Shown here: one piece after another, positions 12,313 through 18,328 of the stretch
How positions within the stretch are numbered: position 1 is the stretch's first letter
Layout of the letters: every line of letters begins with the position of its first letter
UHGV virus genome: UHGV-1605165
Source of the DNA: a virus
Length of the DNA: 19,376 nt
Reading direction: 5' to 3' (one strand)
Made by a program: the position numbers and the translations under genes
Notes under the pieces: model-generated
What the model was told of the DNA's origin: nothing
Databases searched by the model: none
What the model saw: the letters and a program-made list of their open reading frames with translations, nothing else

Positions 12313-13620
12313 TTAAATCCGAAGTGATGTGACTCTTCCGGTCGGTTTGACAATAGGGAATTGCTTAACGATGAAATAACCTCCGGCATCATTCGGGTGA
12401 TCATTGCCAGATTTTTTATCAGGCTCCCCCTTCTCATCCCAGACCTGTTGCTCCAGAGATTCGGCATATAACGGGCAACGCTTCACATTAACTTTATAGC
12501 GACGCTCACCATTGGCATTGCAGAACATTGCATTCATTGAGTTAACGCGATCTTTTACTGGCGGGTTCGAGCTGTTCACCACAACGTTAAAACCAGCCTG
12601 CTTAAGCTGGGCTATATCCGTCGTACTTGCGTTACTTGATTTTCTGGAATCCCCGGAAGCATCTGGATAAATATAAATTTCCCTCACTTTCCGGTAATCA
12701 TTCCCATCATACAGCCAGAAGCGTTCTTTAATGATGCGGATCATATCCGGCGTATCGTAGGCATTGATGATTTCAGTTACCGCACATGGAAGCCCCAAAC
12801 GCAGCACATGGACGATTCCCGCCATCTTTCCAACGTTAAAATCCATCCCAATATAAATCGGCTCCCCTGGCTGCTCCACTTCTTCGCAATTATTCAGTTT
12901 CCGGTCAAACTGATGGTAAACAGTACCACTTGTCAGGTTAGTAAACTGTCCTCGCAGATAGGCTTTAATCAGCTCTGGAGGGTATGATTCAAGAAGCGAA
13001 GGAATGTAATCTGCTGGCAGGTTCTTTTCATTATCGAAAGTAGATGCCTGCACCAGACCATACAGTGAGGCCAGCTCTGTTTTTTCACGCACGGCTTTAA
13101 CAAACTGCTCGTAGACAAATTTGAATCCTTCCGGCGTGGTTGTAACGTCAATACCGTTGCGAAGTCCATCAATCTTATAACGCATACGCGCAATTATCTT
13201 GCGCCACGCCGTTCTGGCTTTTTCCTTCGGCAAAATGTCCAGTTCATCCACCAACGCATTACCAATTTTGAAACCGACGATCGTTTGTGGCTTCTCCATC
13301 GATCTGCAGATAGTGGTTCCCCGATACTGGCGTCCGTAATAAAAGTGAACCTCTTTATTTCCCTCATTAATTTTTACGTTCAATCCCCAGTCAGCAGCAA
13401 CTTCTTCCACTGTAGGGTAAAAAATATCGCGAATTTGGGGATACGTTGGCGCAAAATATCCCTGATTTATACCTGGATGCTCCCAAATCCCCTTGCATAT
13501 GCCGCCACACCCAACCCATGTTTTGCCCGAGCCAAAACCAGCAATATAGGCTTTAAATTTATGGGGCATTGAAAGAAATCGCGCCTGAGGCACATTAAGC
13601 GTCGGAGAGATCATCTTCAT
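12313..13620 (-). CDS. terminase large subunit
   Basis: Walker A ATPase motif GFGSGKT near the N-terminus; ~435 aa; start probably ATG 13620 or 13614 (AAGGAG upstream), overlapping the TerS 3' end. Confidence 0.85.
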   Translation of the reverse strand: MKMISPTLNVPQARFLSMPHKFKAYIAGFGSGKTWVGCGGICKGIWEHPGINQGYFAPTYPQIRDIFYPTVEEVAADWGLNVKINEGNKEVHFYYGRQYRGTTICRSMEKPQTIVGFKIGNALVDELDILPKEKARTAWRKIIARMRYKIDGLRNGIDVTTTPEGFKFVYEQFVKAVREKTELASLYGLVQASTFDNEKNLPADYIPSLLESYPPELIKAYLRGQFTNLTSGTVYHQFDRKLNNCEEVEQPGEPIYIGMDFNVGKMAGIVHVLRLGLPCAVTEIINAYDTPDMIRIIKERFWLYDGNDYRKVREIYIYPDASGDSRKSSNASTTDIAQLKQAGFNVVVNSSNPPVKDRVNSMNAMFCNANGERRYKVNVKRCPLYAESLEQQVWDEKGEPDKKSGNDHPNDAGGYFIVKQFPIVKPTGRVTSLRI

Positions 13621-14689
13621 CACTCCTTACTCTGGCATCAACCACATTAATATTGATCGCCACAGGCTGGGGATGTTCATTATCTTCCACCGTTTCGATC
13701 TCTTTGCGCAGCTTCTGGTTTTCCATTCTGCGCCGTTCAATTTCCAGTTCCTGTAGCCGCTTATCTGCACATAAAGCCCCGCCAGCAGAAAGCAAACGCA
13801 ACAATTCACGCCGGGCGGCAGCCTTATCCTCCAGCAGGATCTCAACGCCGAATTTTCCGAATTTTGCCCCTGCATATAATTGCCGCGCATCCCCATCAAG
13901 CAGAGTGGTATCAGCCATATAAAGCTGTCCCGTTCCCTCACCGCAGCACTTCGGGCAGTCCGGATTGGGTATGGCGTTATCAACAAAGCCGAGGCCTCCA
14001 TATTCCGGTTCGGGTTTGCCATCTCTGGAAGCCTGCGCCGCTGCCTTGTCGAATTCTGCTATATCGCGCCACTGGTAGAGATGATTCTCGCCCCAGCAAT
14101 AACGGCAGTTAACACGGCGAAATTGTGCAAGCTGATTGGGGTCGGCCAGGACAATGGCCATCAACTGACTCACTAGTAAATCCAGGTCTGCGGTATAGCG
14201 TTTCTGGTACTGATTGCGGAAGTAGCTGATAGCGCGAAAAACCCTGGCATTTCTAAGCATACGACTGGCGTTGCTGTTAGCTGTCGCACCTTGCCCCTCA
14301 TAACCGGCTAGTCGGTACGCCTCTGTCGGCTTTTTACCCTGAGCAACAAGCATCGCAAACTTAGCCTGCTGGTCAGAAATGCCGAATTCATCGGGACAGA
14401 ACGAAAATTCCTCCGCGTCGCCCTCATTCAGGCCCGCATCGAATACTGGCTTTTTTTCCTGAGATTTTTCGTTCCGCTTTTGTGCAGTCTGCGCAGATTT
14501 TTTCTGCGCACTTTTTTGCGCAGTTTTGCGCATTTCTGTCTGCGCATTTTTCGGAGTTTTTTTGATGTAACGACGGGCTGTTGCGTAATTCAGTCCCCTT
14601 GCTTCACACCATGCCACCGGAGATATACCGGAGCGGGTGTATTCAGCAATATACTCCTGCTGCAACGCCCCCCAGTCCGGTCTGCTCAT
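13595..14689 (-). CDS. terminase small subunit (atypically long, 364 aa)
   Basis: Central segment MLVAQGKKPTEAYRLAGYEGQGATANSNASRMLRNARVFRAISYF resembles the TerS HTH (Terminase_2-like). Also has an N-terminal HTH-like segment, a Lys/Gln-rich low-complexity linker and a Cys cluster (CRYC...CPKCC). Directly upstream of TerL. Confidence 0.6.
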   Translation of the reverse strand: MSRPDWGALQQEYIAEYTRSGISPVAWCEARGLNYATARRYIKKTPKNAQTEMRKTAQKSAQKKSAQTAQKRNEKSQEKKPVFDAGLNEGDAEEFSFCPDEFGISDQQAKFAMLVAQGKKPTEAYRLAGYEGQGATANSNASRMLRNARVFRAISYFRNQYQKRYTADLDLLVSQLMAIVLADPNQLAQFRRVNCRYCWGENHLYQWRDIAEFDKAAAQASRDGKPEPEYGGLGFVDNAIPNPDCPKCCGEGTGQLYMADTTLLDGDARQLYAGAKFGKFGVEILLEDKAAARRELLRLLSAGGALCADKRLQELEIERRRMENQKLRKEIETVEDNEHPQPVAININVVDARVRSDEDDLSDA

Positions 14690-14692
14690 CAG

Positions 14693-14944
14693 TTAGTCCT
14701 GATTTTTATCCACCCTGAGTAGTTCGCGCAGAGCAAAGGCATCCCCTTTTCTGGCAAGCTTAAACAATGCCGCTCGTAACTCGGCTTCACCTTTCGCTCT
14801 GCCCTTACGGATGGCCGCATAAAAATCTGTCATTGCTTCCCGATTTTCTTTCAGTCGGTTCAGATCAACATCCAGAACGTCAGCGATTTGTTGTGCAGTC
14901 ATCCGGCACGCTGCCAGAGACTCGACTTTCGAATACGGAATCAT
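14693..14944 (-). CDS. small HTH-like DNA-binding protein (83 aa), translationally coupled to TerS
   Basis: Stop TAA 14695..14693 lies 3 nt before the TerS ATG. QQIADVLDVDLNRL resembles winged-HTH openings such as lambda Nu1 KQLADIFGASIRTI. ATG 14944 has a GGGGG stretch upstream, but the gene overlaps the preceding gene by 65 nt, so the start is uncertain. Confidence 0.4.
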   Translation of the reverse strand: MIPYSKVESLAACRMTAQQIADVLDVDLNRLKENREAMTDFYAAIRKGRAKGEAELRAALFKLARKGDAFALRELLRVDKNQD

Positions 14945-15812
14945 TTGTCACCCCCATTGATATGCAGGGTGTCTTCTTCCTGTATTTTTCGTGAAGGATT
15001 TTTACTGCAGCGTTGTTCCAGGTGACCTGATGGTGAATGCGTTTATGGCTGGCACCCATCAGTGAAATTTTTACGCACGACGGCGCATACATGACGGAGT
15101 AAAAACTTTTAACGTAGGTTCCGGAATCCAGATACAGCTCGGTCATTCCGCCGCTGTTTTTCTGCGTCTGTTTCTGCCCTAACTGGACAGCACCGATCGT
15201 CATAAACAATTCACCACAGCGACCGAGATTCGTGTACGTATTCACATCCTCGTTAATGCGCCCCATGAATGAGAACGGTCGATCAACCGAACAGATAAAG
15301 CTGTTCATTGCCTTGCGTTTCACCCACGAAGCATGGCCGCCATTGTCACCAAGAAAATCCCCGCCCTGCGACATAGCGATGGAAAGAGCAGGTATTGATT
15401 CGTAGTACGCCAGCATTTCAGAAAGGATCGCATCCAGTTTCCTTATCGGAAAATAGGCCTGGTCATAGTTGCGATCCACCCGAAACTGGAACTCGTGATA
15501 ATCATCATCGAGCTGAATGAAGTATTTACACCCGACCAGTTTTGCCAGGTCGAAACAGGCATTACGGGCGTAAAAAATTGAGCGGCGGTCACAGAAATTA
15601 TCGGCTTCGTCAAAACGACTGGCGATATCGGCTTTGGAAAACACCAGCACCTGTTCACCAAATTCAGCCATGTACTGATGCCGTGTCTTATCTTCATCAT
15701 CAACAACGATAAAAATTTTCCCGGTATAGCCAGCACGACGCAACGTCCGGTAAGTCAGAACTTTGTCCGGTCGCCCGTGAGTCAGAATAAAGGCGCAAAA
15801 ATCATCACGCAT
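14880..15812 (-). CDS. GT-A-fold glycosyltransferase-like protein (nucleotide-sugar transferase-like), function unknown
   Basis: Likely start ATG 15812 (MRDDFCAFILTHGRPDK...) preceded by GAGGAGGAGGAA. Motif series CAFILTHGRPD, KIFIVVDDEDKT and YFIQLDDDYHEF follows the GT2/GT-A pattern (beta1, IVVDDxS/T box, DxD). No transmembrane segment evident. Confidence 0.5.
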   Translation of the reverse strand: MRDDFCAFILTHGRPDKVLTYRTLRRAGYTGKIFIVVDDEDKTRHQYMAEFGEQVLVFSKADIASRFDEADNFCDRRSIFYARNACFDLAKLVGCKYFIQLDDDYHEFQFRVDRNYDQAYFPIRKLDAILSEMLAYYESIPALSIAMSQGGDFLGDNGGHASWVKRKAMNSFICSVDRPFSFMGRINEDVNTYTNLGRCGELFMTIGAVQLGQKQTQKNSGGMTELYLDSGTYVKSFYSVMYAPSCVKISLMGASHKRIHHQVTWNNAAVKILHEKYRKKTPCISMGVTNDSVFESRVSGSVPDDCTTNR

Positions 15813-16596
15813 ATTCCTCCTCCTCACCACCATGCATGATCTCCACCATGCGCTGCGTCATCCGGACAAATCCATTTTCAATAGCCTGCTGATAATCAAT
15901 GATCACCAGCGCCGACTCCTCGAAAAAACACTGAATTTCAGAGGGGGCGTGAGCGTAATAGTCCGCAATTCTGCTGAAATTAAACACCGTGTGACGTTCT
16001 GCCGCACACAGGAGGAATTTCTCAATATCAGGCTCAAGGGACGCCGAACGTATCCGGCTGATCAGCTCCTGAGTTTTCGTATCGTCGTACAGTTCACTGA
16101 TATCCGGTTTACCGCCCGACGGCTCATAAACAGGCGTATCAATTTTCGTCGTATACGGCTCCTCCTCATTTCCTGTACCGGGCAAAACATCCGTCAACAG
16201 TTCATCAATTTCTGTCGGGATGAAGCCTGTCAGGGAGACATCAAAATCAGCATTGATTAGGTCCGACAGCTCCATCCGCAACAGATCTTCATCCCAGCCA
16301 GCATTCATCGGCAGGCGATTATCTGCCAGGCGGTACGCCTTTTTCTGCTCATCCGTCAGGCCAGACAGAACAATGACCGGAACAGAATCCATTTTGAGCA
16401 TTTCAGCCGCCATAACACGACCGTGACCCGCAATAATTTCGCCCTTTTCGTCAATCAGCACCGGATTAGTCCAGCCGAATTGCTTAATACTTTCTACCAG
16501 TTGTGCCACCTGCTCAGTACTGTGCGTCCTGGCGTTGTGCGCATACGGTGACAATTCTTGTAATGGGCGATAGACTATCTTTAATTTCTCGCTCAT
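15805..16596 (-). CDS. ParB/Srx-like nuclease-domain protein
   Basis: N-terminal SPYAHNARTHSTEQVAQLVESIKQFGWTNPVLIDEKGEIIAGHGRVMAAEMLKMDSVPVIV matches the ParB N-terminal domain signature (GxxR box). ~160-aa acidic C-terminal region with no motif I recognise. ATG 16596. Confidence 0.7.
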   Translation of the reverse strand: MSEKLKIVYRPLQELSPYAHNARTHSTEQVAQLVESIKQFGWTNPVLIDEKGEIIAGHGRVMAAEMLKMDSVPVIVLSGLTDEQKKAYRLADNRLPMNAGWDEDLLRMELSDLINADFDVSLTGFIPTEIDELLTDVLPGTGNEEEPYTTKIDTPVYEPSGGKPDISELYDDTKTQELISRIRSASLEPDIEKFLLCAAERHTVFNFSRIADYYAHAPSEIQCFFEESALVIIDYQQAIENGFVRMTQRMVEIMHGGEEEEYA

Positions 16597-16610: not shown

Positions 16611-16647
16611 TGAATAAAACGCACCCCAGCAGCCAGTGCTACTGGGG
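16611..16647 (-). terminator. putative intrinsic terminator downstream of trkG
   Basis: Minus-strand RNA: CCCCAGUAG-CACUGG-CUGCUGGGG (9-bp stem with one U-G wobble) followed by UGCGUUUUAUU; in the 137-bp gap between the trkG stop and the ParB-like start. Confidence 0.45.
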
Positions 16648-16733: not shown

Positions 16734-18191
16734 TTAGGAGCGCCAAAAAAAACCTGAAAACAATATAATAACAGGATAAATTTCAAGGCGACCAAGAATC
16801 ATAGCTATGCACATTAAACATTTTGCAATGTCATTAAGCACTCCGAATGACGATGCAGTAGCCCCAAAACCTAATCCCATATTATTAATACATGCAGCCA
16901 CTGTTGCAAATGATGTAAGAAAATCATATCCCATACCATTTAACACCAGTATAAAAAACACCGTGAAGAGAGTATAAAGAAAAAAGAAACTCCATACAGA
17001 CCTCATTACACGATCTGTAACTATCTTCCCTCCTACATTTACACTCAACAACGCTCTGGGATGAGAAAGCTGATTTATCTCGTGTTTGCTTTGTTTGAAA
17101 AGTATAAGAAATCGAAGTGACTTAATTCCACCACAAGTTGAACCTATACATCCCCCAAAGAAACTTGACAACAGCAAAAACACTATCGTGTGCGTGGGCC
17201 AACTTGCATAATCCTGCGTAGCTAAACCATTATCAGTGAGCATGGAGCTGGCAAGAAAAAACGAATGAATAAAACTTCCATGCAAGTCATACATACCTAT
17301 ATGCCAGACCTGGAAAGAGGTAACAATGATCACACCTAAGGCTATTAACAGAAAGAAACGAAGTTCAATATCTCTGATTAAAGGTTTTATCGTTTTCCTG
17401 CTAATAACAATATACCAAAGAGTGAAGTTGAAAGCCGATAGCAGGGAAAAAGAACCAGCCACCAGCTCAACCAAATAGTTATTAAAATATCCGATACTCT
17501 CGCTATGAGTTGAGAAACCACCAAGCGAAACTGTGGAAATCCCGTGACAAATAGCATCAAACAAAGGCATTCCTGCAAGTCTATAACAGACAATACAAGC
17601 AATACCTAATAAAGAATAAGTTATCCACAGTGTCCGTGACGTATCGGCCAGGCGGGGAGTGAGTTTGTCATCCTTAAATGGCCCCGGCATTTCTGACTGA
17701 TAAAGCTTTGCACCACCAATACCCAATAATGGCAATACAGCAACCGCCAGAACAATAACTCCTAAACCACCTATAAAATTTAACTGTGACCGATAGTACA
17801 AATATGCCCGAGGTAATGAACTAACATCATCAATTACAGTTGCTCCTGTTGTTGTTATTCCAGAAACCCCTTCAAACAGAGCATCAATGAACGTTAAATT
17901 AAGTTCTGAGTCAATCCATAAAGGGAATGCACTAATAACAGAAAACAAAATCCAAAACATTACAATTATAATAAACCCATCACGGGTACGTAATTGAATG
18001 CCAGATTTCTTAGTTGTATACCACGCTCCGCCACCAATGCAAAAAAATATAACGAAAGTTATAAAGAAAACAAACAGGCTTTTTTCTTTATAAAACAATG
18101 CTACAACCATTGGTGGCAACATTGAAAGACTATAGAGCCAAACCAGGAACCCACACATATGAGTAACAACTCTTACATGAGATGTATTCAT
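16734..18191 (-). CDS. trkG: Trk-system K+ uptake protein TrkG (TrkH family), prophage moron
   Basis: Polytopic membrane protein with TrkH-family segments FEGVSGITTTGATV, GGLGVIVLAVAVLPLLGIGGAKLYQSEMPGPFKDDKLTPRLADT and C-terminal GRLEIYPVIILFSGFFWRS. Likely start ATG 18191 (MNTSHVRVV..., 485 aa) rather than the TTG at 18209. Markedly AT-rich compared with flanks. E. coli K-12 trkG lies in the Rac prophage next to Rz-like genes. Confidence 0.9.
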   Translation of the reverse strand: MNTSHVRVVTHMCGFLVWLYSLSMLPPMVVALFYKEKSLFVFFITFVIFFCIGGGAWYTTKKSGIQLRTRDGFIIIVMFWILFSVISAFPLWIDSELNLTFIDALFEGVSGITTTGATVIDDVSSLPRAYLYYRSQLNFIGGLGVIVLAVAVLPLLGIGGAKLYQSEMPGPFKDDKLTPRLADTSRTLWITYSLLGIACIVCYRLAGMPLFDAICHGISTVSLGGFSTHSESIGYFNNYLVELVAGSFSLLSAFNFTLWYIVISRKTIKPLIRDIELRFFLLIALGVIIVTSFQVWHIGMYDLHGSFIHSFFLASSMLTDNGLATQDYASWPTHTIVFLLLSSFFGGCIGSTCGGIKSLRFLILFKQSKHEINQLSHPRALLSVNVGGKIVTDRVMRSVWSFFFLYTLFTVFFILVLNGMGYDFLTSFATVAACINNMGLGFGATASSFGVLNDIAKCLMCIAMILGRLEIYPVIILFSGFFWRS

Positions 18192-18328
18192 ATCTAAATA
18201 TTCTTTCAATTATAACCACCTTGCTGCAATATTATGATTATACTGTATAAAATTTAACTCCTCTTAGATCTTACTTCACTGTTCCTTATGAAACAATCAT
18301 CAAAATGAATCATATTGTAGTTAAGATT

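Follow-up and report, generated by a model that had tools for sequence, protein, structure and literature searches.

What does a tailed phage do with a ParB-like protein and a glycosyltransferase that are encoded as one overlapping unit just ahead of its DNA-packaging genes? This question is raised by a stretch of viral DNA of 19,376 nucleotides (UHGV-1605165; hereafter the window), whose carrier is a Rac-like E. coli prophage. An earlier note, made from its letters alone, had described the two genes as a two-protein unit and had offered three roles without ranking them: sugar modification of phage DNA, glycosylation of virion proteins, or a packaging-associated nuclease with a modifying partner. 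It had also said that it did not know the pairing as a characterised system. This agrees with our full-text literature search, which returned no paper on a ParB and TAGT pair; the likeliest prior computational mention, Iyer et al. 2013 (NAR 41:7635), lay outside the reach of that search. The ynaK-TAGT pair is widely conserved and experimentally uncharacterised.

Results

Locus and gene coupling

The ORF and translation read-out placed the ynaK-family gene and the TAGT-family gene on the minus strand, at the coordinates given in the earlier note. The motifs, the DxD, the gene overlap and the Shine-Dalgarno sequence that it had described were all present in the sequence (Table 1). The stop of ynaK and the start of the TAGT gene overlap by 8 nt, and the Shine-Dalgarno-like element is built from the last Glu codons of ynaK. 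The longest TAGT frame begins at 15833, yet the start given in the table is favoured by homologue alignments and by RefSeq.

The TAGT gene, the 69-aa ORF and the small and large terminase genes form one tightly packed operon. Terminase_2 and Terminase_6N/6C domains were identified by Pfam in the terminase genes, and phrog_309 (small-terminase fragment) was matched at E 8e-23 in the context of the 69-aa ORF and terminase. No promoter-like site was found between the terminator-like hairpin and ynaK. The hairpin, this finding and the packing with the terminase genes would count for late expression, and we infer that the pair is transcribed solely by an antiterminated late transcript.

Table 1. 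Features of the ynaK-TAGT locus, in positions of the window
Feature	Position	Strand	Remarks
Terminator-like hairpin	16624..16647	-	between trkG stop and ynaK start; 10-bp stem, 7 G-C pairs, then T run
ynaK-family gene	15805..16596	-	263 aa, intact; ParB/Srx nucleotide-binding domain, acidic linker, conserved C-terminal domain
YnaK residues 1-136	16189..16596	-	ParB-type NTP-binding domain and two short helices
YnaK linker motif, Y148-T-T-K-I-D-T-P155-V-Y157-E-P159	16120..16155	-	conserved; in disordered acidic linker (residues 137-160)
YnaK C-terminal domain (residues ~161-255)	15832..16116	-	helical, acidic, strongly conserved, ~100 aa
Coupling junction	15805..15825	-	Shine-Dalgarno-like GAGGAGGAGGAA (15825..15814), then overlap ATGCGTGA (15812..15805); read directly from the sequence
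ynaK stop codon TGA	15807..15805	-	
TAGT-family (GREB1-related) GT-A glycosyltransferase gene	14880..15812	-	310 aa; ATG 15812, stop 14880
69-aa ORF	14693..14902	-	overlaps TAGT 3' end by 23 nt; RefSeq annotates the 70-codon ORF
Small terminase gene	13595..14689	-	starts 3 nt past the 69-aa ORF
Large terminase gene	12313..13623	-	overlapped by the small terminase gene

The TAGT glycosyltransferase

The TAGT protein contains CAFILTHGRPD, KIFIVVDDEDKT and YFIQLDDDYHEF, and its DxD is D102-D103-D104 (15501..15509). Its match to Pfam PF20691 spans positions 4-205 of the 205-position profile and scores 122 bits where the curated threshold is 27.5 (E 3.4e-35), and phrog_842 was matched at E 6e-104. 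Its best structural matches in BFVD are TAGT proteins, and RefSeq names the product 'GREB1-related protein'. A search by sequence found no solved structure for it. The fold is that of a GT-A nucleotide-sugar transferase with a DxD metal site. Of the earlier GT-A/GT2 label, therefore, the fold and the DxD hold, whereas GT2 has to be replaced: the transferase belongs to the TAGT/GREB1-related family. The DDD, NEDV and HH signature is invariant and is shared by the homologue of T4-like phage 65. The other invariant residues are R14, D68, R83, K167, D189 (of the NEDV motif), G222, T224, K235 and H260-H261, and the C-terminal ~25 residues are not conserved. The invariance of the catalytic signature across phyla indicates selection for sugar transfer. 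Several Lactobacillus delbrueckii phages carry a split or decayed copy, so under some conditions at least the gene can be dispensed with. A role in serotype conversion or envelope glycosylation was rejected on two grounds: the transferase matched no family of membrane or envelope-glycosylation proteins, and the hosts of the carriers include Gram-negative and Gram-positive bacteria as well as archaea.

The ParB-type domain of YnaK

YnaK contains the ParB signature VLIDEKGEIIAGHGRVMAAEMLKMDSVPVIV. The ParB N-terminal domain that the earlier note had recognised from it was confirmed by Pfam ParB_N (E 9e-07, over the gathering score) and phrog_620 (E 1e-90), and RefSeq names the gene 'ParB/Srx family N-terminal domain-containing protein (ynaK)'. 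Homologues with 54-85% identity span the full length of the protein. The ParB motifs appear as N21-A-R23 (QPR in ParB), S36...G41, G57-H-G-R60 (GERR) and D92-N93 (EN), which include the GxxR and (E/D)N motifs of the ParB/Srx NTP-binding domain. The phosphate- and cytosine-binding positions of M. xanthus ParB were listed by O'Toole et al. (PMC13229309), and their counterparts in YnaK are the arginines of NxR and GHGR together with N93, S36 and G41. The last three never vary in the family; the arginines are constant in close homologues and substituted in the most divergent members. Both hydrolysis residues of ParB are substituted in YnaK (Q to N and E to H).

Among 424 phage records, the closest relatives of this domain outside YnaK lie within DNA methyltransferase genes, and at least one such ParB-methyltransferase fusion gene sits just upstream of terminase. 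Residues 10-144 matched the N-terminus of a Type II DNA methyltransferase model (PADLOC MTase_II PDLC03229, E 1.5e-38), the N-terminal domain matched phrog_498 (ParB-domain DNA methyltransferases, E 8.8e-51), and the identity to the N-termini of annotated phage methyltransferases is 45-56%. The phrog_498 and PDLC03229 matches end at about residue 144; the rest is the linker and C-domain specific to YnaK, with no fused SAM-dependent methyltransferase domain. Judged by these similarities, the ParB domain of YnaK is of the DNA-modification type.

Neither an HTH nor a ParB C-terminal family was found in YnaK with Pfam and NCBIfam, and TIGR00180 scored 38 bits against a cut-off of 58. The protein is strongly acidic (pI 4.5 as a whole, 4.1-4.8 for both domains). 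No ParA-like gene occurs in the window or in a whole related Rac-like prophage. A partition function was rejected on the lack of ParA and of an HTH, and on the location of the gene in an integrated prophage and also in phage c5, which has no annotated lysogeny genes. Pfam detected no HNH or other nuclease family in YnaK, and the term nuclease used in the earlier note finds no support. In the phrase 'ParB-like nuclease', the word is the database name of the domain. Membership in a defence system was also rejected, since the only PADLOC match was to the ParB part of the methyltransferase model and the glycosyltransferase had no match at all.

The linker and C-terminal domain of YnaK

The region behind the ParB domain had been described as acidic and without a recognisable motif. 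It is indeed acidic, but it carries both a conserved linear motif and a conserved helical domain. Residues 137-160 form a short disordered acidic linker, with a pLDDT below 50 for residues 137-158 of the predicted structure. Its consensus is [YF]-[TS]-x-K-I-x-x-P-x-Y-E-P. Among the homologues from bacterial and archaeal viruses P155 is invariant, Y148, Y157 and P159 are nearly so, and position 149 is always Ser or Thr. The motif is kept in stand-alone C-domain proteins without ParB, and may serve as a docking peptide or as a glycosylation site.

In the C-domain A199, R201, A211, Y214, E226, V231 and D234 are invariant, and H202 and G242 nearly so. It matched no family in Pfam or NCBIfam, and no structural match was found. 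Among 1.84 billion cluster representatives it has 1180 relatives. In Vibrio phage pv27 the C-domain alone (E 8e-43), without ParB-N, stands upstream of TAGT. As far as gene neighbourhoods tell, the C-domain is the obligate partner of its TAGT subfamily.

Conservation and distribution of the pair

The census covered 92 fetched loci, which form 27 TAGT clusters at 90% identity. An ORF with the YnaK C-domain lies directly upstream of every TAGT gene and on the same strand (92 loci, 27/27 clusters). The two genes overlap by 4-17 nt in 26 of the 27 clusters, and in most loci a Shine-Dalgarno-like purine run lies within the 3' end of the upstream gene. Both proposals made from the single locus, translational coupling and a two-protein unit, are supported. 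The pair is a conserved two-gene module, more than would be expected by chance.

The pair occurs in tailed phages of four bacterial phyla (the hosts are Proteobacteria, Lactobacillus, Nocardia and Porphyromonas) and in the haloarchaeal virus HHTV-2; several carriers are prophages or temperate. Phage c5 (complete, 31.8 kb) has the pair and no annotated integrase or CI-type repressor. Most often the pair stands just ahead of the gene for the small or the large terminase. ParB-like genes lacking an attached enzyme can likewise precede terminases; Yersinia phage vB_YpM_41 has one. The earlier note had proposed a neighbourhood census, and in it the pair travels independently of the head module: Terminase_6N/DUF4055 heads accompany it here, TerL_ATPase/HK97-type heads elsewhere. 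The pair is not adjacent to terminase in pv27 and HHTV-2. In pv27, a 191-kb phage, the C-domain protein and TAGT stand amid topoisomerase, clamp, SSB, primase and helicase genes, not structural genes.

A search for natural YnaK-TAGT fusions gave no convincing case; a metagenomic chimera of 161 aa resembles a frame artefact arising from the overlap. The N-terminal extension of ~108 aa in the TAGT of T4-like phage 65 was considered as a YnaK C-domain and proved unrelated.

Search for a hydroxymethyl-pyrimidine source

The earlier note had seen no TET-like or hydroxymethylase partner, and the wider search gave the same result. No TET/5mYOX or hydroxymethylase gene was found in the window (ORF list, Pfam and PHROG), and no TET_JBP or ThyA-like protein is annotated over ~42 kb of the Rac-like prophage. 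The complete phage c5 has none by annotation and none by Pfam among the ten unannotated ORFs scanned. None was present in the Pfam-annotated flanks of three metagenomic phages, nor among the 25 Pfam families listed (of 62) for 67 upstream ORFs of 13 loci. In most loci flanks of up to 10 kb were inspected. Phage pv27 encodes a thymidylate-synthase homologue, which adjoins DHFR; true thymidylate synthases likewise sit beside DHFR. We know of no DNA glycosyltransferase acting on a canonical base, and to our knowledge sugar-modified phage DNA has so far been linked with lytic phages in which hydroxymethyl- or hydroxy-pyrimidines are made first. The present module is unlike these, as no precursor pathway was found and several of its carriers are prophages or temperate.

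Discussion

Whatever the pair modifies must be common to all of its carriers. Their heads, terminases, envelopes and lifestyles differ, and DNA is what they share. We therefore rank the roles left unranked before. DNA is favoured over virion proteins as the target, because head modules and hosts are too varied for a shared virion protein, because ParB domains of this type occur fused to phage DNA methyltransferases, and because the pv27 pair lies among replication genes. Our best explanation, held with slightly less than even confidence, is that the pair is a ParB-assisted, late-expressed, post-replicative two-subunit DNA glycosyltransferase of tailed viruses. The TAGT protein would be the catalyst, a metal-dependent GT-A transferase that uses its DxD and a nucleotide-sugar donor. 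YnaK would be its obligate partner; the C-domain and the preceding linear motif would bind or activate the transferase in a complex, and the ParB-type domain may add an NTP-gated (probably CTP) dimerisation or clamp function. The clamp would let the complex act on dsDNA, much as ParB176 is needed by 5mYOX176. Translation of both genes from the antiterminated late transcript would keep the two proteins in a fixed ratio. The place of the pair directly ahead of terminase suggests that newly replicated concatemeric DNA would be glycosylated just before or during packaging. Once injected into the next host, the genome may be shielded by the sugar from restriction or other defences that target nucleic acids. 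As no hydroxymethyl-pyrimidine source lies beside the pair, the acceptor would most likely be a canonical DNA moiety. The full form of this idea, in which the sugar is attached directly to a canonical DNA constituent (base, backbone or ends) with no hydroxymethyl precursor and with a ParB-fold protein as NTP-gated cofactor, is doubtful enough that we advance it with reserve.

There are precedents for the parts of this explanation. The T2/T6 member of the TAGT family glucosylates DNA (PMC13216743, PMC13390438). Burke 2021 credits Iyer et al. 2013 with the idea that phage ParB proteins escort DNA-modifying enzymes during packaging (PMC8256090), and experiments published in 2026 demonstrated a phage thymine dioxygenase that depends on ParB (PMC13229309). 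The general idea of ParB assisting DNA-modifying enzymes is thus not new. Several observations speak against the explanation. No acceptor is evident, since neither TET/5mYOX nor dNMP hydroxymethylase genes turned up in the genomes and flanks inspected. The acidic YnaK lacks a DNA-binding domain and so cannot alone tether the enzyme to DNA. The Vibrio phages do without the ParB domain, which is therefore not essential to the core chemistry. The published work on the ParB-5mYOX system saw only minor effects of mutations in the NTP-binding residues and trapped no stable complex (PMC13229309), so even this closest precedent leaves the clamp mechanism unproven.

The serious rival is that TAGT O-glycosylates a protein, not DNA. 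GREB1, whose glycosyltransferase domain is related to phage and kinetoplastid DNA-base transferases including TAGT, O-GlcNAcylates a protein (PMC7968844), and the problem of the missing acceptor disappears. The most economical candidate acceptor would be YnaK itself at the linker motif, which is highly conserved and disordered, lies beside the partner domain of the enzyme, contains two Tyr besides the invariant Ser/Thr of position 149, and is retained in ParB-less versions; in that case the ParB NTP-binding domain would serve as a regulated switch that carries a sugar. Another candidate is a packaging protein present in every carrier, for example the small terminase or the portal. A conserved linear motif suits a docking peptide equally well, however, and virion proteins are too different between carriers for a shared target. 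The ParB-linked enzymes found here (N6/N4 and C5 methyltransferases) and 5mYOX (PMC13229309) all act on DNA, and the pv27 pair stands amid replication genes. On balance we regard protein as an unlikely target that still deserves attention. Conventional TAGT chemistry on 5-hydroxymethyl-pyrimidines, or on a sugar they bear, would depend on a precursor provided in trans. The dioxygenase or hydroxymethylase making it could be encoded at another place in the phage, by the host or by a superinfecting phage; the last case would make the pair a prophage defence or interference system. All biochemically known phage DNA glycosyltransferases use hydroxylated or hydroxymethylated pyrimidines or their sugars (PMC13216743, PMC13390438, bioRxiv 10.1101/2023.12.21.572611), Pyle et al. 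note ParB genes close to glycosyltransferase pathways with 5mYOX or ThyS, and the inspected flanks were mostly limited to 10 kb. The searches of the prophage, of phage c5, of the three metagenomic flanks and of the 13 loci speak against such a source, and the thymidylate-synthase homologue of pv27, which might be taken for one, has the DHFR neighbour of the true enzymes. Lysogen defence is ill-suited to a pair that lies behind a terminator in a late operon and occurs in a phage without annotated lysogeny genes, and PADLOC has no match for the transferase. Supply in trans is accordingly quite improbable.

The conserved place immediately upstream of terminase in most carriers, in one packed operon, and the enzyme-free ParB-like genes before terminases such as that of vB_YpM_41 would suit a packaging accessory without base modification. 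The ParB-like protein would act with terminase at cos or pac (recognition, end protection or nicking), and the transferase-like protein may be a structural or regulatory partner, or may modify DNA ends only. Yet the catalytic signature does not vary between phyla, the pair accompanies unrelated terminase families in cos and headful phages alike, it is away from terminase in pv27 and HHTV-2, no nuclease motif was detected, and the gene is decayed in some viable phages. We give this role very little credence. A nucleotide, a signalling molecule or RNA could also be the acceptor, for instance in neutralising a host immune signal, with the ParB fold binding the nucleotide substrate. Small-molecule kinases and various NTP binders are among the proteins with a ParB/Srx fold (SerK and SbnI in the structure search; PMC12704722), and the acidity of YnaK and its lack of a DNA-binding domain are in keeping with this. 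But the set of HGRP, DDD, NEDV and HH is that of TAGT glycosyltransferases, not nucleotidyltransferases, the related literature offered no precedent, and the ParB-less Vibrio version retains the C-domain, not the nucleotide-binding domain. Such an acceptor is a long shot.

The relation of the preferred DNA glycosyltransferase to known systems is as follows. Like TAGT here, the T2/T6 beta-glucosyl-HMC-alpha-glucosyltransferase belongs to the PF20691 and PHROG 842 family and has the GT-A fold and the DxD / NED / HH signature, whereas the phage 65 homologue is only ~22-24% identical. The T-even enzyme adds a second glucose onto glucosyl-hmC from a dCMP hydroxymethylase pathway and has no YnaK partner; in TAGT here no hydroxymethyl-pyrimidine pathway was found and the ParB/C-domain partner is obligatory. 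The family name comes from association with a TET/JBP dioxygenase or hydroxymethyl-pyrimidine pathway, which was not found here. According to Iyer 2013 as cited in PMC7968844, the glycosyltransferase domains of JGT and GREB1 are related to phage TAGT. The kinetoplastid base-J glucosyltransferase (JGT) acts on 5hmU made by JBP, and GREB1 is a 1949-aa cytoplasmic protein that O-GlcNAcylates ER-alpha (PMC7968844); neither has a ParB partner.

The closest counterpart of YnaK is ParB176, a ParB homologue needed for the neighbouring post-replicative enzyme 5mYOX176 on dsDNA (O'Toole et al., PNAS 2026, PMC13229309). Compared by published description, both have an NBD, short helices, a linker, a C-terminal domain and no DNA-binding domain, both genes lie beside that of the enzyme, and the NTP-binding residues are conserved in YnaK and in ParB of 5mYOX systems. 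The partner of ParB176 is a 2OG/Fe dioxygenase for 5-methylpyrimidine, that of YnaK a GT-A glycosyltransferase; ParB dependence was shown for 5mYOX176, whereas for TAGT gene coupling points to it. The ParB-DNA methyltransferase fusions (phrog_498; PDLC03229; Kaljevic et al. 2025, PMC12704722) have the same ParB subtype as the N-terminal 140 aa of YnaK. There the enzyme is fused and transfers methyl; here it is a separate, translationally coupled protein with predicted sugar transfer, and the C-domain of YnaK would be a dedicated adaptor in place of the fusion. The CTPase clamps of partition ParB, Noc and KorB share the N-terminal fold and the phosphate- and base-binding motifs with YnaK, which in contrast has no HTH, no detectable C-terminal dimerisation domain, no ParA, altered hydrolysis residues and a strongly acidic character.

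If the target is a protein, the pair would be a rare conserved cytoplasmic protein-glycosylation switch in phages. If it modifies DNA, the virions released by many common prophages would carry chemically marked genomes, which bears on restriction, on Type IV and CRISPR escape, on transduction and sequencing artefacts, and on the search for new DNA chemistries and biotechnology enzymes. The principle of ParB as activator of a DNA-modifying enzyme would extend from dioxygenases to glycosyltransferases, and E. coli ynaK and a conserved domain matching no family would obtain a function. Should the acceptor be canonical DNA, this would be a new class of DNA glycosylation in many bacterial and archaeal tailed-virus lineages, with roughly every sixth complete E. 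coli genome among its carriers; 867 of 5426 such genomes have 80% or more of the 2.2-kb stretch that includes the pair.

Results

The peptide strings that the earlier note had quoted for ynaK (gene 1) and for the gene of a TET-Associated Glycosyltransferase (TAGT) family member (gene 2) were found exactly in the 263-aa and 310-aa translations. As it had described, the start of gene 2 overlaps the stop of gene 1. The overlap is 8 nt long with the junction GAGGAGGAGGAA-T-ATGCGTGA, and a purine-rich, Shine-Dalgarno-like run built from the last Glu codons of gene 1 lies ahead of it. The start of gene 2 was set at 15833 in a mechanical ORF list, whereas the alignment of 33 homologues and the RefSeq annotation place it at 15812. 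All genes of the window are on the minus strand, in the order endolysin, Rz, trkG, ynaK, glycosyltransferase, 69-aa ORF, small terminase, large terminase, portal, and head and tail genes. The location claimed for the pair, between lysis genes with cargo and terminase, was also recovered, with Rz and trkG upstream and the 69-aa ORF and the terminase genes downstream. The trkG gene is cargo and looks like an insulated moron within the late operon, because it is followed by its own strong terminator-like hairpin. No promoter-like site was found between this hairpin and ynaK, and from ynaK through the terminase genes every gene overlaps or almost abuts its neighbour. Therefore, the antiterminated late transcript is probably the sole source of the pair, which would be made in fixed proportion and along with the packaging enzymes. 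The 69-aa ORF matches only an internal piece of the small-terminase PHROG phrog_309. The function of the small terminase may be split or extended in the window.

Features of the gene pair and its surroundings
Feature	Position	Strand	Size	Description
ynaK (gene 1)	15805..16596	minus	263 aa	
TAGT-family transferase (gene 2)	14880..15812	minus	310 aa	
Terminator-like hairpin	16624..16647	minus		10-bp stem, then T run; between trkG and ynaK
trkG	16734..18209	minus		Complete Trk-family potassium transporter gene; Pfam TrkH, E 5e-145; between Rz and ynaK
69-aa ORF	14693..14902	minus	69 aa	23-nt overlap with TAGT 3' end; phrog_309 match, E 8e-23
Small terminase	13595..14689	minus	364 aa	Unusually long; Terminase_2 domain at residues 122-321

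The transferase matched Pfam PF20691 (TAGT, E 3.4e-35) and PHROG 842 (E 6e-104), and its RefSeq name is 'GREB1-related protein'. The homologue alignment showed that D102-D103-D104 is invariant, as are R14, D68, R83, K167, D189 (NEDV motif), G222, T224, K235, and H260-H261. This invariance spans homologues of 28-48% identity from Lactobacillus, Nocardia, Porphyromonas, and Vibrio phages and a haloarchaeal virus. A T4-like phage homologue carries the same signature, with DDN as its DxD. The final ~25 residues of the E. coli transferase are not conserved; this stretch exists because the gene continues for 23 nt inside the following ORF. Profile match, fold, and active-site signature all place the transferase in the TAGT family.

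To judge by its name, the TAGT family should come with a TET/JBP dioxygenase or some other supplier of hydroxymethyl-pyrimidine. The earlier note had seen no hydroxymethylase or TET-like partner in the window, and none was found. No TET/JBP dioxygenase or other source was present in ~42 kb of Rac-like prophage or, by Pfam annotation, in the flanking sequence of three metagenomic phages. The complete 31.8-kb Lactobacillus delbrueckii phage c5 had none by annotation and Pfam scan (ten unannotated ORFs), and 67 upstream ORFs from 13 diverse loci gave none among 25 of 62 Pfam families. The evidence for this absence is strong, although not exhaustive because the upstream-ORF scan took in 25 of 62 families and only some genomes were covered in full. 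The transferase of the window is thus without the genomic association that gave its family its name. The hosts of the carriers differ too much for a hydroxylated DNA base to be common to them.

In the alignment of YnaK with ParB, N21-x-R23 corresponds to Q-P-R, S36...G41 to S...G, G57-H-G-R60 to G-E-R-R, and D92-N93 to E-N. The aligned positions in M. xanthus ParB are listed as phosphate-binding, cytosine-binding, or catalytic (O'Toole et al., PMC13229309). The binding residues of that list are kept in YnaK. N93, S36, and G41 are invariant, and two binding arginines are invariant in close homologues and replaced in the most divergent members. Both hydrolysis residues of the list are altered. 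Judged from its sequence, the YnaK N-domain would bind an NTP, possibly CTP, with altered turnover. Residues 10-144 matched a Type II DNA methyltransferase model at its N-terminus (E 1.5e-38), as well as a PHROG of phage methyltransferases (E 9e-51). In evolution this domain is closest to ParB domains fused to DNA methyltransferases. Relatives occurred in 424 phage records, and the nearest of those outside YnaK (45-56% identity) form part of annotated DNA methyltransferase genes. The one such example inspected is two genes upstream of terminase.

Two short helices are followed by an acidic linker, predicted to be disordered (pLDDT <50), with the conserved motif [YF]-[TS]-x-K-I-x-x-P-x-Y-E-P, and then by a helical C-terminal domain of ~100 residues. 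In this C-domain A199, R201, A211, Y214, E226, V231, and D234 are invariant and H202 and G242 nearly so. It had no match in Pfam, NCBIfam, or by structure. Its relatives numbered 1180 among 1.84 billion cluster representatives, and it stands behind a ParB N-domain in 125 of the best 150 of them. In all lineages the two halves of YnaK are both strongly acidic (pI 4.1-4.8), and YnaK has no DNA-binding domain. A partition ParB was rejected, given the lack of an HTH, a ParB C-terminal domain, and a ParA partner. A metagenomic relative of 433 aa (P0267) apparently has two tandem ParB-type N-domains before the C-domain. Yersinia phage vB_YpM_41 (L094 415..1005) encodes a ParB-domain protein of 196 aa that shares 61% identity with the N-domain of YnaK, without C-domain or TAGT; its gene is the first of the genome, immediately before a large unannotated gene. 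Therefore, the YnaK-type ParB subtype occurs also without an attached or adjacent enzyme.

Many E. coli strains carry the 2.2 kb around the pair in their chromosomes with 100% identity. This region found a match in 1619 of 5426 complete E. coli genomes, and at least 80% of it was present in 867 of the 5426. It is also ~99.7-99.9% identical to ten phage records in the databases, of which nine come from E. coli and one is assigned to Salmonella. In a related genome, one flank carries racR, ydaS/T/U/V, kilR, sieB, racC, and recET, and the other lambda-like tail genes. These matches and neighbours identify the element carrying the pair as an intact Rac-like lambdoid prophage. Truncated ynaK genes occur in many E. 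coli genomes (clusters P0194, P0206, P0227, and P0235), with the first ~165 codons joined to lom, terminase, or other Rac genes. They are deletion scars in decaying Rac prophages from which the transferase and head genes are gone.

TAGT loci were sampled from metagenomes, IMG/VR, and GenBank phages, giving 92 loci in 27 clusters at 90% identity. A YnaK C-domain ORF lies directly upstream of TAGT on the same strand in every one (92/92 loci, 27/27 clusters). The genes overlap by 4, 8, 11, or 17 nt in 26 of the 27 clusters, and in most loci a Shine-Dalgarno-like run falls within the last part of the upstream gene. Among the carriers are Lactobacillus gasseri phage phi jlb1, phage c5, Nocardia phage NTR1, Porphyromonas phages (with TAGT at only 27% identity), and haloarchaeal virus HHTV-2. 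Phage c5 is a cos phage in which the pair forms the first two genes after cos; it has no annotated integrase or CI-type repressor. Most often the pair directly precedes the gene for the small or the large terminase. The earlier note had proposed a two-protein unit, for which a neighbourhood census was to show whether it travels apart from the head module. It does so, because the terminase, portal, and capsid families differ among carriers.

The 191-kb Vibrio phages have an upstream gene with only the linker motif and C-domain (E 8e-43), without the ParB domain. Such stand-alone proteins of ~140 aa with YTxKIxxPxYEP lie directly upstream of TAGT in Vibrio phage pv27 (L090 5459..5878) and at L083 9577..10005. 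Therefore, the C-domain and the transferase form the invariant core, to which a ParB domain is commonly, but not necessarily, added. The neighbours of the Vibrio pair are topoisomerase, sliding-clamp, SSB, primase, and helicase genes. Phage pv27 also has a separate 'partition protein' ~10 kb away from the pair and a thymidylate synthase adjoining DHFR. T4-like phage TAGTs have no YnaK-type partner. In L. delbrueckii phages phiLdb, Ld17, LL-Ku, and Ld25A, the TAGT gene is broken into two, has lost its N-terminal part (LL-Ku), or survives as a remnant of 45 aa, while the ParB-like gene is retained. Thus, some dairy phages can do without the transferase. The TAGT match is uninterrupted in c5 and PMBT4, which are related phages.

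Discussion

Tentatively, we propose as the most likely mechanism that the two proteins form a post-replicative DNA glycosyltransferase assisted by its ParB-type partner. In function, the nearest precedent is 5mYOX176, a phage thymine dioxygenase that needs a neighbouring ParB for activity on dsDNA; this ParB consists of NBD, linker, and CTD without a DNA-binding domain (PMC13229309). The proposal also draws on the methyltransferase-fused relatives of the ParB domain and on DNA being the sole substrate common to all carriers. In addition, Iyer et al. 2013 is quoted for the proposal that ParB proteins of phages guide enzymes of DNA modification at the packaging stage (PMC8256090). In this model, the C-domain and linker motif would keep the transferase in place or activate it. 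NTP-dependent dimerisation would come from the ParB domain, and the enzyme would make up for the absent DNA-binding domain. Once packaged, the genome would be shielded by the sugar in the next host. As no precursor pathway was found, the acceptor would be a canonical DNA moiety. This specific reading is less likely than not, and the chemistry would be new.

The biochemically characterised phage member of the TAGT family, the T2/T6 enzyme, adds a second glucose onto glucosyl-hydroxymethylcytosine (PMC13216743, PMC13390438). On the other hand, GREB1, whose GT domain is related to TAGT, O-GlcNAcylates a protein (PMC7968844). This precedent and the missing DNA acceptor favour glycosylation of protein, for which the conserved Ser/Thr/Tyr motif of YnaK is an obvious candidate acceptor. 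We consider this unlikely, as the YnaK ParB subtype keeps company with DNA enzymes and the pv27 pair lies among replication genes. Conventional chemistry on hydroxymethyl bases supplied in trans is improbable. A small molecule or RNA as the acceptor is equally improbable. Least probable by a little is a packaging accessory without a modifying role, since the catalytic signature is invariant and some carriers have the pair away from terminase.

On the preferred DNA-glycosyltransferase reading, the pair would work like the ParB-dependent 5mYOX systems and the ParB-methyltransferase fusions without being a member of either. The pairing had been unfamiliar to the earlier note as a characterised system; indeed, no paper describing or testing it was found, although the neighbourhood may already appear in Iyer et al. 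2013. In Pyle et al., ParB genes close to phage GTs receive a passing mention, limited to 5mYOX or ThyS pathways, and the survey of ParB-fold fusions by Kaljevic et al. (PMC12704722) does not mention glycosyltransferases. The pair is widespread, uncharacterised, and cheaply testable. Its TAGT membership and its likeness to the 5mYOX-ParB and ParB-methyltransferase systems relate it to systems already known.

In the Rac-like prophage of another E. coli strain (L001 29057..31950), genes for an ATP-dependent nuclease and a DNA cytosine methyltransferase are inserted in the early region on the opposite strand. This accessory pair might interact with any phage-made DNA modification.
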